Positions 26,411-31,332 of a stretch of DNA of 64,000 nucleotides are shown here, in pieces. How positions within the stretch are numbered: the first letter of the stretch is position 1; each line of letters starts with the position of its first letter. Under the pieces are notes generated by a model that saw only the letters and a list, made by a program, of their open reading frames with translations, made no database searches and was not told the origin of the DNA. The position numbers and the translations under genes were made by a program. Source of the stretch: a candidate division WOR-3 bacterium (lineage in GTDB: Bacteria; Hydrothermota; Hydrothermia; LBFQ01). Where the stretch lies: the NCBI GenBank assembly GCA_039802605.1, contig JBDRWW010000005.1:1-64000 (forward strand), read 5' to 3'.

Positions 26411-27471
26411 ACGGGTAGCAATATTTCCACAAGGGCATAACACTGTACGGCGTTATCAAAAAATGTATTCCCACTTTTGGCCTTTAAAGATATGTTTTCG
26501 GTATTAAAAAGGGTTTTTAAGGAGTTGACGATTTTATCCCTATAAGGCGCCAACTTGGGCTTTGAAAGGATTACGGTTATATCCAAAAATTTTATTGAAA
26601 CACCCCTTTCCTCCAACAACTCCATTGCCTTCCTCGCAAAAACCTCGCTCCTTACACCTTCCCATTTTGGATCGTTATCCGGAAATACCGTACCTATGTC
26701 CCCATATCCGAGACCAGAAAGTAAAGCATCAACAACCGCGTGAATAATAACATCACCGTCGGAATGCCCTACGGCACCAAAATCTTCCGAGATTTTAACA
26801 CCACCCAGGTATAAAGGCCTGCCCAATTCAAGCCTATGAACATCATAACCGAAAAAAGTCATCTTTTCCATCTTCAACCTTTCAAGAACCATTAAATCTT
26901 CCGGATATGTTATTTTGAAATTCCACCTATTGCCCTCAACAAAAACGGGTTTTATACCCAAAACCCCACTCATTAAGCTACCCTCATCCGGATAGATTCC
27001 CTTGGCGCTTTCATAAGCCTTTAAAAACAAATCCCTTTTTACCTTCTGGGGTGTTTGAACCAAATATACGAGATCCCTATTTATGTAATCCCCATTGTAT
27101 ATAACGCTATCCGGAGGTTTTATAACCGGGATTACGCAGTCCCCTTGGGTTTCAATAACCCTTTTTACAACCTCTGGGGAAATGTTTGCCCTTGCACCAT
27201 CGTGTATTAAAACATAATCGCCGGACGAGATTAAAACCCCGTTATAAACCGAATGCATCCTTTCATTGCCACCCTCAACAACCTTAACACCTAAGCCCCT
27301 CCACCCTTCAACATCTTCACTTGGAACAACCAGGACAATGTCCTCAACCTTTAAACTTTTAAAAACTTCAATTGAAAAGAGGATTAAAGGTTTATTTCCG
27401 ATTTTATAGAATTGCTTTTTAAAACCGATTCTCCTCCCCTTGCCACCCGCAACTATAACCGCACTTACCAT
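26407..27471 (-). CDS. ispDF: Bifunctional IspD/IspF
   Basis: AGGKGRR, LIHDGAR, VQTPQ, KITYPEDL then GYDVH, GHSDGDVIIHA. Confidence 0.92.
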   Translation of the reverse strand: MVSAVIVAGGKGRRIGFKKQFYKIGNKPLILFSIEVFKSLKVEDIVLVVPSEDVEGWRGLGVKVVEGGNERMHSVYNGVLISSGDYVLIHDGARANISPEVVKRVIETQGDCVIPVIKPPDSVIYNGDYINRDLVYLVQTPQKVKRDLFLKAYESAKGIYPDEGSLMSGVLGIKPVFVEGNRWNFKITYPEDLMVLERLKMEKMTFFGYDVHRLELGRPLYLGGVKISEDFGAVGHSDGDVIIHAVVDALLSGLGYGDIGTVFPDNDPKWEGVRSEVFARKAMELLEERGVSIKFLDITVILSKPKLAPYRDKIVNSLKTLFNTENISLKAKSGNTFFDNAVQCYALVEILLPV

Positions 27472-27977
27472 TCCACCTGGGAGAACAGGTGTCTAATACC
27501 CTGCCTGTAAAAATCCTCAATAGCCTTTTTTAAGGCCTCATCTTCGCTTTCCCTATCGGGAAACCACAAAGAATTACCCGTAATATTCGCATCGCCTACA
27601 AATTTCTCTCCGCTGGCCAGGTCAATAAACTCTATTTTACCAATTAAGGAAAGCCTGTATGATATAACCTTTCCGGAATTGTCATACTGTTCGGGGGTTT
27701 TCACATATGCGTTAAATACGGTTTTTATCATAAGTTTGGCGTTTGAGCTATCCGTTGGCTTCAACCTTCCATCGGACCTTATAGAGTTCAAACCGTAGTT
27801 TAAAGACAAATCCTGAACCAAAGGGTAATCGGTTTTGTTTTCGGGTATAGAAAAATATACCCTATTATACCCCTTGGGTAGGCTTACACCAAATGTGTAT
27901 ATACAATTAATAACCCATAGAGCGCAGAATGGTAAGGAATTCCTTAGTGTCTTTAAGGGCAGTCTCAAAATCCACAT
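27465..27977 (-). CDS. lptE: LPS assembly lipoprotein LptE-like (start uncertain)
   Basis: C-IYTF after a hydrophobic stretch, ENKT, SEDEALKKAI, terminal W. Confidence 0.6.
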   Translation of the reverse strand: MWILRLPLKTLRNSLPFCALWVINCIYTFGVSLPKGYNRVYFSIPENKTDYPLVQDLSLNYGLNSIRSDGRLKPTDSSNAKLMIKTVFNAYVKTPEQYDNSGKVISYRLSLIGKIEFIDLASGEKFVGDANITGNSLWFPDRESEDEALKKAIEDFYRQGIRHLFSQVEW

Positions 27978-28167
27978 CGTATTCCGCCACGAGGTCGCTT
28001 GCTATCTGTTCTGCGTTCCTACCCTCCTTATAGCCCTTATATATCCTTGCGGCCGTCTCGTTCATAATCAAGCTTTCCGCTTTAAGCCTTTTCGCGGTTA
28101 GAAGGCCTCCTATCCCAAGGGTTAATGCCCCCAAACCCATAAGTTTTAAAAATTCCCTTCTTGTCAT
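27907..28167 (-). CDS. Tat-signal PqqD/RRE-domain protein
   Basis: MTRREFLK twin-arginine motif and hydrophobic helix; MNETAARIY...EQIASDLVAEYDVDFETALKDTKEFL..L is PqqD-like. Confidence 0.7.
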   Translation of the reverse strand: MTRREFLKLMGLGALTLGIGGLLTAKRLKAESLIMNETAARIYKGYKEGRNAEQIASDLVAEYDVDFETALKDTKEFLTILRSMGY

Positions 28168-28217: not shown

Positions 28218-30767
28218 ATGATATCCGAACCCTATAAGGGCAAGATAGTTTCAAATTTAAAGGTTTTGGATTATTCCGAAAGGCTAAACTTAGCGGAAAA
28301 TTACGGTTGGAATGTCCATAAAATCCCAGCCGGTTATGTTCTCGTGGATTTCTACGACCATACGCATAACTCCCTATCCGAGGAGCAGTTTGCCGCATTA
28401 TTCTTAGGGGATGAAGCGTATGCCGGGAGCGAAAACTTTCTAAACATTCAAAGGAAAGTTAAGGAAGTTTTTGGAAAGGATTGGGTTGTACCAGCCCACA
28501 ATATTAGGGGAGCGGAACACCTTCTGTTTAAATCCTATTTACAGGAACAAAGGTTTGCCGCAAATCATCCAACGGATACATTAAGGGTTTTGGCAAAATA
28601 CTTTAAATCGGAAATCTATGAGTTTTCCGATATTTCGGAAATTCCAAAGGACATAAAGTTCGTATATATATCCGCATCGCCAAAAAACATAGAGAAGTTA
28701 GGGGTTTGGTTGGGGGAGTTGAAAAAGGCGGGTAAGTTTTTAATCCTTGACGGTTCAAATCTGTTTTCACTCCTGGCTTTTATGAGCATTGAAAAAAACG
28801 GTGATATTGGGGATTTAAAGGGTGGGGTTTTGGAACTGGTTTCCTTTGCCGATGTTTTGCTAATTGACGCCTCACAGGATCTCTTTTCACATGTCGGCGC
28901 ATTGATTATTACGGGTTATGAGGAGGTTTATCGTAAGTTCCAAAGTTGGGTGGTTTCCTTTGAGGGTTTGCACACATACGGGGGGCTTGCGGGTAGGGAT
29001 ATGGAGGTGATTTATAGGGGGTTTGATGAGGCACTTAGGGGTGATTATCACCTTTGGAGGTATAAGGAAATTGAGAGGTTTTATAAAAAGGTTAAGGAAC
29101 TCGGTTATGAGGTTTCGCCAAAGTTCTCACCTATGGGGTTCCATATAAAGGTTGAAAATCCATACCCTTTTAACTTAGCCCTTTACCTTTCCGGCCAGGT
29201 TAGGGGGTTTGCAAAGAAGAATACCCTTTGCCTTCACATACCCAAAAGGACATATTTAAGGGAACATTACGAATACTTTGCGGATGTTTTGAAATACTTA
29301 AAGGATAAACCCCTGCCGAACCTATCGCCCGACTTTGAAACGGATTTCAAAGAGGATGAGGTCTTAACATTTACCCCCTCAAAACCCCTTTATAGGTATG
29401 ATGTTGTGCCCTTTAACGCATACCCTTACAGGTTCAAATCCGTTGAACTCCTTATACACAGGAGCAGGGAGTATAGGGAAAGGGCTATAGAGGAGGCGGG
29501 TTATAATACCTTCCTTTTGAGAAGTGAGGATGTTTATATAGACCTACTCACGGATTCGGGTACGGCGGCTATGAGCGATGAGCAGTGGGCTGATGCCTTA
29601 TATTATGAATGGAAGGACCCTTATGAGTATTTGAGGCAGGCGGTTTATGATGTTTTCGGATTTAATTACTTTATACCCACACATCAGGGAAGGCAGGCGG
29701 AGCACTTCATATCACAGGCCCTGATAAAACCGGGGCAATATGTCATAAACAATATGTATTTTACGACCACGAGGTTCCATCAGGAATATGCCGGTGGAAT
29801 ATTTGTAGATCTTATAATACCGGAGGCTCACGACCCCACATCCGAACATCCCTTTAAAGGGAACCTTGATGTTGATGCGGTTTATAGATTTATTAAGGAA
29901 AAGGGTCCAAAAAATGTGGCGTATATATGCGTTGAAACGAATGTGAATATGGCGGGTGGACAACCCGTATCCCTTGAAAATGTTAAGAAAATAAGGGAAA
30001 TAGCCGATGAGTTTGGAATTCCCGTAGTTTTTGATGCAACAAGGATTGCGGAAAACGCGTACTTTATAAAAACGAGGGAAAAGGGTTATGAAAATTGGAG
30101 TATAAAGGACATAATAAGGGAACTGCTTTCTTATGCGGATGCGGCAAGTATATCCGCAAAAAAGGATCCTCTAACCAACATAAGCGGATTACTCCTTATA
30201 AGGGATCCGGAGGTTTATAATAGGGTTTATGAGTTTGCAACCGCCTTTGACGGTTCCCCTTATGACGGGGGTTTGGCCGATAGGGATTTGGCCATATTGG
30301 CAAGGGGCCTTTACGAGATGACGGATTACCATTACCTAAGGAGTAGGATTCAGCAGGTTCAATATTTGGGGGAGAAATTGCATTCCCTCGGAATACCGGT
30401 TGTTAGGCCCATTGGTGGGCATGCGGTTTATTTGGATGCCAAGAGTTTTTTACCCCATATACCGCAGGATGAATATCCAGCCCAGGTTTTGGCGGCGGAG
30501 ATTTATATAGAGGGTGGGGTTAGGGTTATGGAGAGGGGAACGGTTTCGGCGGGAAGGGATCCGGAAACCGGAGAGAATAGAAAACCAAAACTTGAACTCG
30601 TTAGGATCACAATATCTAGGAGGGTATACACAACGGATCATATGGATCAGGTGATAGAAACCATATTGGGTGTTTGGAACAGGAGGGAAAGTATAAGGGG
30701 TTTGGAATTCGTTTATGAGGCGCCCTTTTTGAGGTTCTTCACATCAAGGTTCAAAAGGAAGGGATAG
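28218..30767 (+). CDS. tpl: Tandem-duplicated tyrosine phenol-lyase (two beta-eliminating lyase domains)
   Basis: C-copy: IDLLTDSG, THQGR, YFTTTR, DATR, SAKKD, MERG, LRFFTSRF (TPL-type rather than tryptophanase-type); N-copy: GDEAYAGS, EGLHTYGGLAGRDME. Confidence 0.88.
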   Translation: MISEPYKGKIVSNLKVLDYSERLNLAENYGWNVHKIPAGYVLVDFYDHTHNSLSEEQFAALFLGDEAYAGSENFLNIQRKVKEVFGKDWVVPAHNIRGAEHLLFKSYLQEQRFAANHPTDTLRVLAKYFKSEIYEFSDISEIPKDIKFVYISASPKNIEKLGVWLGELKKAGKFLILDGSNLFSLLAFMSIEKNGDIGDLKGGVLELVSFADVLLIDASQDLFSHVGALIITGYEEVYRKFQSWVVSFEGLHTYGGLAGRDMEVIYRGFDEALRGDYHLWRYKEIERFYKKVKELGYEVSPKFSPMGFHIKVENPYPFNLALYLSGQVRGFAKKNTLCLHIPKRTYLREHYEYFADVLKYLKDKPLPNLSPDFETDFKEDEVLTFTPSKPLYRYDVVPFNAYPYRFKSVELLIHRSREYRERAIEEAGYNTFLLRSEDVYIDLLTDSGTAAMSDEQWADALYYEWKDPYEYLRQAVYDVFGFNYFIPTHQGRQAEHFISQALIKPGQYVINNMYFTTTRFHQEYAGGIFVDLIIPEAHDPTSEHPFKGNLDVDAVYRFIKEKGPKNVAYICVETNVNMAGGQPVSLENVKKIREIADEFGIPVVFDATRIAENAYFIKTREKGYENWSIKDIIRELLSYADAASISAKKDPLTNISGLLLIRDPEVYNRVYEFATAFDGSPYDGGLADRDLAILARGLYEMTDYHYLRSRIQQVQYLGEKLHSLGIPVVRPIGGHAVYLDAKSFLPHIPQDEYPAQVLAAEIYIEGGVRVMERGTVSAGRDPETGENRKPKLELVRITISRRVYTTDHMDQVIETILGVWNRRESIRGLEFVYEAPFLRFFTSRFKRKG

Positions 30768-31332
30768 AGACTTCCAATTTTATCCAATCGCCCGAACCTA
30801 TTAAGTTTTCCCAAATGGTTTTATCCACGGTTTCTTTTAACAAAATCCTCCTCAAAACCTCAATGGCCAGTTGGTGTGATACCACAAAAACGACATTATA
30901 AGCGTTTATTTCGGAAAACCACAAAATATCCCTTACGGCCTTTTCGAGCCTTTCCGCCATATCAAGAACGCTCTCTCCGCCGGGTGGCGCCACATCAACC
31001 GTCCCCCAAAGTTCCGGAAATTCCTCCCTTATACCTTCGTAAAATTTCCCTTCCAATTCCCCCATATTCCTCTCCCTCAGTCTCCAATCGAGTAAAACGG
31101 GCGCATTTGGATGTAGTCGCCTTATAAGGTTTGCGGATATTATGGCCCTTTTTAAGTCGGATGAGAATATTACATCGGGATTATCCGGTATTTTTCCGAC
31201 CTTTTCCAAGAATATCTTTTTGGCCTCTTCATAAGGTTCTATATCCGCCCACCCTTGTATTCTCCTCTCATCATTCCAAACCGTTCTCGCGTGCCTTATT
31301 AGGTAGATTTTCATAATGTATCGTCCAGCCAA
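30751..31332 (-). CDS. Histidine phosphatase family protein
   Basis: LIRHART.WN, SSDLKRA, LRERNMG.LEG, GGES, VSH. Confidence 0.9.
   Translation of the reverse strand: MAGRYIMKIYLIRHARTVWNDERRIQGWADIEPYEEAKKIFLEKVGKIPDNPDVIFSSDLKRAIISANLIRRLHPNAPVLLDWRLRERNMGELEGKFYEGIREEFPELWGTVDVAPPGGESVLDMAERLEKAVRDILWFSEINAYNVVFVVSHQLAIEVLRRILLKETVDKTIWENLIGSGDWIKLEVSIPSF

Follow-up and report, generated by a model that had tools for sequence, protein, structure and literature searches.

A tandem-fused tyrosine phenol-lyase whose two halves appear to share a single active site

The stretch of DNA analysed here, called the window, comprises the first 64,000 nucleotides of contig JBDRWW010000005.1 (assembly GCA_039802605.1) from a candidate division WOR-3 bacterium of the Hydrothermota. 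On its plus strand, at 28218..30767, lies a gene of 849 codons plus stop for a tandem-fused protein, P0001, that resembles tyrosine phenol-lyase (TPL). Its two homologous halves have lost complementary parts of the enzyme: the C-terminal half (C-half) retains the cofactor and substrate pocket, whereas the N-terminal half (N-half) retains the loops that act in trans in the catalytic dimer. We consider it quite probable that the gene encodes a natural single-chain TPL catalytic dimer with one composite active site.

Both halves belong to the beta-eliminating lyases. Pfam PF01212 matches the 849-residue protein twice, and the scores for the whole protein (268.3 bits), the N-half (45.4) and the C-half (227.3) each exceed the cut-off of 27. 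Compared directly by BLASTP, residues 1-400 and 401-849 align over 343 columns with 23% identity (E 8e-19). The N-half (aa 1-395, 28218..29402, +) is a degenerate lyase copy, or pseudo-subunit, that has lost the residues for pyridoxal phosphate (PLP) and substrate, while the C-half (aa 396-849, 29403..30764, +) is a full-length TPL-type catalytic copy. The linker between them, SKPLYRYDVVPFNAYP (aa 388-403, 29379..29426, +), contains no residue with a predicted local distance difference test score (pLDDT) below 50. Four in-frame codons separate the ATG from the nearest upstream stop, giving an open frame of 853 amino acids. A preliminary description of this DNA had read an 849-residue frame with two homologous halves and had quoted the motifs of each; the frame, the two Pfam matches and the BLASTP alignment bear out the former, and every residue called in the motifs proved correct and in its place.

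For conservation across the family, relatives were taken from the best 120 matches in a search of 5.8 billion proteins, of which 99 are at least 780 aa long and span the whole query. We aligned 98 fusion-length cluster representatives without P0002, a protein identical to the query; a further 22 shorter rows stayed outside the conservation counts, 18 of 440-500 aa serving as comparators in the tree and four partial ones (527-605 aa) remaining unused.

Aligned by phmmer with Erwinia herbicola TPL (1c7g), the C-half matches end to end (E 4.2e-165) with a sole gap of four residues at TPL 67-70; TPL numbers equal protein numbers minus 396 before residue 462 and minus 392 after it. The TPL numbering was verified by counting along the 1c7g sequence for T49, G52, E69, Y71, F123, T124, N185, D214, R217, K257, N262, M288, Y291, R381 and R404. 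Foldseek places the C-half on the TPL structures 2ez1 and 9j3u with template modelling scores (target) of 0.95-0.97, root-mean-square deviations of 1.4-2.0 and 52-54% identity in the structural alignment. The pocket can be followed along the plus strand. TDSGT (aa 445-449, 29550..29564) provides T445 and G448 as Thr49 and Gly52, and HQGR (aa 489-492, 29682..29693) provides Q490-G491-R492 as the phosphate-binding Gln98, Gly99 and Arg100. In YFTTTR (aa 514-519, 29757..29774), F515 and T516 correspond to Phe123 and Thr124, the TPL-type specificity residue; N577 corresponds to Asn185. DATR (aa 606-609, 30033..30044) contains D606 and R609 (Asp214, Arg217), and SAKKD (aa 646-650, 30153..30167) contains S646, K648 and K649, equivalent to Ser254, Lys256 and the PLP lysine Lys257. 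Further downstream follow N654 (Asn262, 30177..30179), R773 in MERG (Arg381; aa 771-774, 30528..30539), R796 (Arg404, for the substrate carboxylate; 30603..30605) and F840 F841 (Phe448 and Phe449; 30735..30740). By the same count, both R802 of the C-half and R344 of the N-half correspond to Arg410. The C-half equivalents of T49, G52, Q98, G99, R100, F123, T124, D214, S254, K256, K257, N262 and R404 are present in all 98 representatives, as is the aspartate of SAKKD, and those of R217, R381, F448 and F449 in 96 each.

What the C-half lacks are counterparts of Glu69, Tyr71 and Tyr291, which are found in the chain solely as E66, Y68 and Y254 of the N-half. The GDEAY loop is reduced to a degenerate remnant, DALYYEWKDPYE (aa 459-470, 29592..29627, +), that carries the four-residue deletion, as seen from the 1c7g alignment and the family columns. 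HMMER sets Y463 opposite Tyr71 across this deletion, in a variable column that reads A30 Y22 V15 T13 G8 S5 (n=98) and whose flanking column is Y, N, S, L or H in the closest relatives; a GDEAY-type tyrosine persists in the C-half of just 4 of the 98. The YGG loop, EGMPSYGG in TPL, is replaced by the degenerate DGSPYDGGLADRD (aa 678-690, 30249..30287, +), where alignment gives serine for Met288 and aspartate for Tyr291; across the family the Tyr291 column of the C-halves contains S31 N27 D21 T8 Q5 H3.

The N-half is the mirror image. It matches tryptophanase and TPL with E values from 4.5e-36 to 5.8e-33, the tryptophanase 1ax4 (E 4.5e-36 in three stretches, phmmer) scoring slightly above TPL. 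GDEAYAGS (aa 64-71, 28407..28430, +), which lies in the predicted interface, contributes E66 and Y68 as Glu69 and Tyr71, and the second trans-acting loop, EGLHTYGGLAGRD (aa 249-261, 28962..29000, +), contributes L251 and Y254 as Met288 and Tyr291. Among the 98 N-halves the Glu69 position is E in 94, the Tyr71 position Y in 93 (with two F and, in truncated rows, three gaps), the Tyr291 position Y in 95, and G250 is invariant; the other positions of GDEAYAGS and EGLHTYGG are each kept in 87-98, making these loops the best-conserved parts of the N-half. The PLP lysine is replaced by glutamine (Q220 in DASQD, codon 28875..28877, +) in a column that reads E51 Q12 G9 K8 F6 Y5. N95-I96 stand for Gln98-Gly99, N181 for Arg217 and C338 for Arg404, and the counterparts of Phe123/Thr124, the Arg381 region and the C-terminal Phe-Phe (Phe448/449) are missing. 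In the hot-spring lineage of the window the N-half has shrunk to 397 residues, compared with about 468 in P0062 (labelled Nitrospiraceae); the deletions fall around the active-site lids, and this lineage has the most reduced N-half among those compared. The alignment of both halves to TPL that the preliminary description had suggested, run here with 1c7g, confirms that their losses are reciprocal.

Homologues with the same reciprocal pattern, also called for at that stage, are present across the 98 representatives, which puts the pattern far beyond chance. Along the 94 rows of the main clade (described below), conservation averages 0.45 in the N-half with peaks at residues 61-80 (0.69) and 241-260 (0.81), and 0.69 in the C-half with troughs at 461-480 (0.42) and 661-680 (0.49), the mirror of the N-half profile. 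Measured against the orthologue from the same genus (94% identical in the N-half, 96% in the C-half), the N-half has a ratio of non-synonymous to synonymous substitution rates (dN/dS) of 0.104 and the C-half one of 0.064. Purifying selection acts on the N-half, which is not decaying.

How would such a chain work? In TPL the K+ site brings Glu69 of one subunit together with Gly52 and Asn262 of its partner, and Met288 likewise has a role in trans. By its position, we take Tyr307 of E. coli tryptophanase to be the tyrosine of the YGG loop. In Proteus tryptophan indole-lyase, the proton donor is described as Tyr72*, which the partner chain of the catalytic dimer contributes (PMC11301627), and in E. 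coli tryptophanase Tyr74 and Tyr307 are reported to form hydrogen bonds with the PLP phosphate in the adjacent subunit (PMC2770544). For TPL, Tyr71 is given as the general acid, Arg381 as the base and Thr124 as the residue that fixes the phenol hydroxyl (PMC10170061). The preliminary description had presupposed that the neighbouring subunit donates Tyr71, Glu69 and the YGG loop; for the catalytic and the second tyrosine this is in print for tryptophanases.

In the mechanism that we propose, an ancestral TPL gene would have been duplicated in tandem and fused, after which the two copies would have lost complementary parts. The C-half would bind PLP on K649 and supply the whole substrate pocket (the equivalents of Thr124, Asn185, Arg217, Arg381, Arg404 and Phe448/449), and the N-half would pack on it as a pseudo-subunit, like the second subunit of a catalytic dimer. 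Y68, the general acid in the place of Tyr71, would reach into the C-half pocket and pass a proton to the leaving ring, with E66 and the 249-256 loop (L251/Y254) completing the cation and phosphate environment. The symmetry-related site, formed by the N-half pocket and the C-half loops, would be dead, so one active site per chain and one PLP are expected. We infer this stoichiometry, together with an activity that would be the reversible beta-elimination of L-tyrosine to phenol, pyruvate and ammonium; TPL chemistry is favoured because the C-half carries the tyrosine-type specificity residues. The earlier proposal that the reciprocal losses leave one composite site thus has the residue mapping, the mirrored conservation, the selection on the N-half and the structural models behind it.

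The models suggest how the halves may be packed. AlphaFold2, given a 95-row family alignment from which three N-terminally truncated rows had been left out, predicts the whole chain with a mean pLDDT of 95.4 and a predicted template modelling score (pTM) of 0.94, a value that needs confident relative placement of the halves. A two-chain prediction of N-half against C-half with PLP scored 0.90, the best of three controls 0.00; the mark set for this score is reached by 116 of 157 solved complexes and by 2 of 215 mismatched pairs. Between the two-chain runs, 93% or more of the contacts are shared, and the partner pLDDT is at least 92. The predicted interface involves residues 65-72, 246-252 and 256-261 of the N-half and residues 444-450, 489-493, 517-524 and 654-655 of the C-half, with E66 contacting N654 and T449. 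Pairs related by the two-fold axis recur (654/655-258 versus 687-225/226, and 466/467-37/39 versus 436-70/72, besides 489-94), the YGG-type loops of both halves are likewise placed symmetrically about this axis, and the predicted arrangement of contacts is that of the catalytic dimer. A Foldseek overlay was uninformative on packing, as it returned single-chain TPL and tryptophanase matches to the C-half only.

The fusion is not confined to the window. Of 201 genomes sampled from the phylum, 20, the window's own among them, have an open frame of at least 800 aa where the N-half matches; fusion frames occur in all four genomes of the genus and in six of seven of a sister family in the same order, the seventh frame being 539 aa long. 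Loci with one long frame also occur in metagenome-assembled genomes (MAGs) labelled Deltaproteobacteria and Anaerolineales, with further long matches in MAGs labelled Nitrospiraceae, Myxococcales and unclassified bacteria. Among the names that the sources give to the matching proteins are Candidatus Hydrothermia, WOR-3, Calescibacterium, Nitrospirae and bacterium HR21. A search with the N-half at 50% clustering gave 18 representatives at E <=1e-30, and 11 among the top matches listed are of fusion length. In a FastTree phylogeny of the 98 C-halves and 18 standalone proteins, rooted on the genome's own paralogue and given SH-like supports without bootstrap, 90 C-halves form one group (support 93) that four more adjoin. 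This main clade of about 94 representatives bears the labels Nitrospirota, Chloroflexota, Myxococcota, Deltaproteobacteria and WOR-3/Hydrothermia. The short proteins P0077, P0087 and P0103 fall inside the fusion group, begin within the linker and have no GDEAY; P0077 is nearly identical to the C-half of P0015, and from their sequences all three look like partial gene calls of fusions.

But is there still a form in which the two copies are separate? No split alpha/beta pair was found in the best 80 of 595 loci. Two candidate precursors, L060 (5914..8741, MAG labelled Planctomycetaceae) and L067 (5992..8799, MAG labelled Bacteroidetes), turned out to hold a TPL gene next to a tryptophanase gene, both of the ordinary kind, complete and equipped with a lysine and a tyrosine of their own; their order varies, and in L060 the two abut. 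The sole lyase-type frame of a third, L022, is a complete tryptophanase-like gene.

Outside the main clade stand two pairs of fusion-length proteins, P0019/P0025 and P0105/P0119. P0019 (927 aa) and P0025 (944 aa, labelled Chroococcales by one source) keep QGR, DASR and SAKK in the N-half, where the tyrosine motif has become GDESF (Tyr71 to Phe), Tyr291 has become Cys and Arg381 is missing; their C-half keeps GDEAYAGS and the TPL pocket, with His for Arg217. The pair may go back to a fusion of its own, in which degeneration has taken the opposite polarity. P0105 (899 aa) and P0119 (910 aa) have both the PLP lysine and the Tyr71 motif in each half, with Val at Arg381 and Ala-Thr at Phe448/449 of the C-half, and judging by these residues may be two-site fusions of different specificity. 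One could speculate that beta-eliminating lyases have repeatedly turned symmetric four-site enzymes into tethered pseudo-heterodimers with one site per pair, once in the main clade, where the C-half was fixed as catalyst and the N-half as donor, and, by a separate fusion of reverse polarity, in the cyanobacteria-labelled lineage of P0019/P0025, a generalization that we regard as rather doubtful. If it were true, the family would present, as a natural series, successive stages in which active sites degenerate reciprocally, with the hot-spring form of the window, its N-half trimmed to 397 residues, as the most reduced stage; the oligomeric state might then differ, or the pseudo-subunit might have a regulatory use.

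Several observations weigh against a composite TPL site in P0001. The four proteins just described are of fusion length and break the pattern. The N-halves of 8 of the 98 representatives have Lys at the Lys257 column, the other PLP residues being gone; four of these eight are the closest relatives of P0001 (P0003, P0004, P0007 and P0008, 73-79% identical), and the exchange of Gln and Lys at this position in them is probably neutral. The TPL equivalog model TIGR02618 of NCBIfam, with a cut-off of 720.7 bits, gives the whole protein 757.4 bits when summed over three stretches, residues 1-400 by themselves 130.4 and residues 401-849 only 633.7; as the C-half alone misses the cut-off, its substrate specificity is read from four residues. 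Both structure predictions could be reproducing the solved TPL dimer. Since dimers of TPL and tryptophanase have been solved, the two-chain result may derive from them; it shows likeness to those dimers rather than binding. Y254 is absent from the interface residues named by that prediction. Finally, replacement of Tyr71 is reported to act differently on different substrates (PMC3870968), and a site without this tyrosine is not necessarily inert towards good leaving groups.

The composite site could also be assembled between chains. In such a swapped topology the N-half would complement the C-half of a second chain, making the site intermolecular and the enzyme an obligate domain-swapped dimer. 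TPL and tryptophanase are described as tetramers of two catalytic dimers (PMC10170061; PMC2770544), both halves of P0001 keep the N-terminal strand of the non-catalytic interface in the AlphaFold2 model (strands 6-13 and 404-411), and the two-chain prediction does not distinguish pairing within a chain from pairing between chains. The prediction for the single chain speaks for the former: confidence is high for the model as a whole and does not drop to a low level in the linker region. From this we infer that the halves pack within one chain, and we regard the swapped arrangement as unlikely.

A second question is whether the N-half pocket has been recruited for regulation or for binding a ligand, beside the single catalytic site. 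Some of its positions are still conserved among the 98 N-halves, namely R at the R100 equivalent in 76, S at the T216 equivalent in 89 and D at the D258 equivalent in 86, and for glycine decarboxylase non-covalent PLP has been predicted in the lysine-less N-terminal fold (PMC7259800). The Arg404 equivalent has been lost, however, its column reading G26 F13 Y8 A8 W8 H7 P6; the equivalents of Phe123/Thr124, Gln98/Gly99 and Arg217 vary across the family; whole lid segments are gone in the N-half of the window's lineage; and the loops that would be needed to complete this pocket are those that the C-half conserves least. We therefore give recruitment a low probability. The preliminary description had freed the dead site for just such a role, a suggestion that these data do not support, as the N-half has lost the Arg404 counterpart and most other pocket residues.

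Alternatively, the N-half might be a stabilising or vestigial appendage to a C-half that needs no tyrosine in trans and acts on substrates whose leaving groups are good, rather than on tyrosine. Tyr71 and Arg381 are reported to be dispensable for some reactions of the TPL/tryptophanase family (PMC3870968), and the N-half does evolve faster, as seen from its lower mean conservation and from its identity to G150 (62%, versus 87% for the C-half). Yet the loops that would be useless to an appendage are precisely those conserved best in the N-half, the tyrosine-specific Thr124, Arg381 and Phe448/449 persist in 96-98 of the 98 C-halves, and the N-half has a dN/dS of only 0.10. We hold this explanation to be very unlikely.

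That two adjacent genes were joined by an assembly or frameshift error is extremely improbable: separate adjacent TPL and tryptophanase genes do exist elsewhere (L060, L067), but the junction near 29400 is bridged with zero indels by contigs in four of four runs from four studies, the same-genus orthologue also has an open frame of 853 aa, the architecture is common to the 98 cluster representatives, and the N-half is unlike a normal gene copy. One of the four bridging runs may be the window's own source; in two of the four, single contigs cross the whole 3 kb. The assembly chimera that the preliminary description had named as a possible refutation is excluded by these contigs and by the frames in other genomes. 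The stretch 28900-29900, which includes the junction, has at least 0.89 of its sampled words in 12 runs of five studies, from hot-spring and related metagenomes; no RNA runs were among those listed as containing it. In the contigs of all four bridging runs position 29333 is T where the window has C, and 29353 is G where it has A, so that the window departs from the common form of those samples at two positions.

In this genome, which is 90% complete, no TPL-type gene other than the fusion was found. The same genome contains a threonine-aldolase-like PF01212 protein and, on contig C15 (locus L003, 1393..2730, -), a separate gene for a tryptophanase-like protein of 445 aa. This tryptophanase-like protein carries ADESYAG, SAKKD and EGFIHYGG motifs of its own; Asp stands at Thr124, Val at Arg381 and His-Phe at 448/449. 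It scores 591 bits with the NCBIfam tryptophanase subfamily model NF009709 and misses both equivalog cut-offs. No operon partner of the lyase gene was found in its neighbourhood, where unrelated housekeeping genes surround it, and a scan for promoters and terminators returned three promoter-like sites (6.1 expected) and no terminators (4.1 expected). Just upstream lies a divergent open reading frame (ORF) of 86 aa (27907..28167, -) with a PqqD-family match of 44.9 bits and a twin-arginine-like N terminus, MTRREFLKLMGLGALTLG. It overlaps, in another frame, the 3' part of a weak LptE-like ORF (27465..27977; 21.8 bits, below cut-off), and either of the two calls may be spurious. At the other end, the 3' end of the lyase gene overlaps that of a convergent gene of the histidine-phosphatase family (30751..31332, -) by 17 bases (30751..30767); no terminator-like hairpin was found between these two genes.

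We would also like to place the fusion into the context of known enzymes. TPLs (EC 4.1.99.2), such as those of Citrobacter freundii and Erwinia herbicola (2ez1, 1tpl, 1c7g), are homotetramers whose identical subunits are about 456 residues long and form four equal sites, whereas the window protein combines two unequal copies in an 849-residue chain. Every TPL subunit has Tyr71, Glu69 and Tyr291; in the fusion, where the C-half keeps the pocket and the N-half these three residues, they occur once per chain rather than in each copy. Tryptophan indole-lyase (Proteus vulgaris 1ax4, E. coli 2oqx) shares fold and family and uses Tyr72*/Tyr74 and Tyr307 across its catalytic dimer, but differs from the C-half of the fusion, which has TPL-type specificity residues. 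The same design principle is found in the glycine decarboxylase P-protein (GcvP/GLDC), another fold-type-I PLP enzyme, which is described as either a single chain with two homologous halves or an alpha-beta pair, with the PLP lysine in the C-terminal half only and glutamine at the N-terminal counterpart (PMC7259800). The P-protein differs in family and reaction, and its halves have diverged far more. The window protein lies outside that family: among Pfam models it matches PF01212 only, and its NCBIfam matches are confined to models for TPL and tryptophanase. A wide VIA-align search, which had no P-protein among the 50 matches listed, at least a fifth of them spanning residues 419-825 only, was uninformative on packing. 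Serine palmitoyltransferase likewise consists of homologous fold-type-I subunits, LCB1 and LCB2, with the PLP lysine in LCB2 only; LCB1 is thought to supply other catalytic residues to a single active site (PMC3794620). Unlike the fusion described here, LCB1 and LCB2 are separate polypeptides, bound to the membrane, and belong to the alpha-oxoamine synthase family. The design principle is thus already known in other fold-type-I PLP enzymes, while the fused form of TPL is new within the literature searched: no publication on a fused or tandem TPL or tryptophanase was found in a search whose coverage left most subscription journals outside.

TPL and tryptophanase are model PLP enzymes. TPL is moreover described as an industrial catalyst for L-DOPA (PMC10170061). 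Cold dissociation is reported to cost tryptophanase its activity (PMC2770544). A chain that carries both partners of the catalytic dimer would allow several questions to be asked directly: is the second site dispensable, does the tether stabilise the catalytic dimer, and how has the tetramer interface adapted? Database labels such as 'tyrosine phenol-lyase' or 'tryptophanase' hide the fusion architecture. For enzyme evolution, the family would offer a clean case, at the level of sequence, of complementary degeneration after tandem duplication and fusion, in which one half has become a pseudoenzyme that may be conserved solely for the loops it lends to its partner half.

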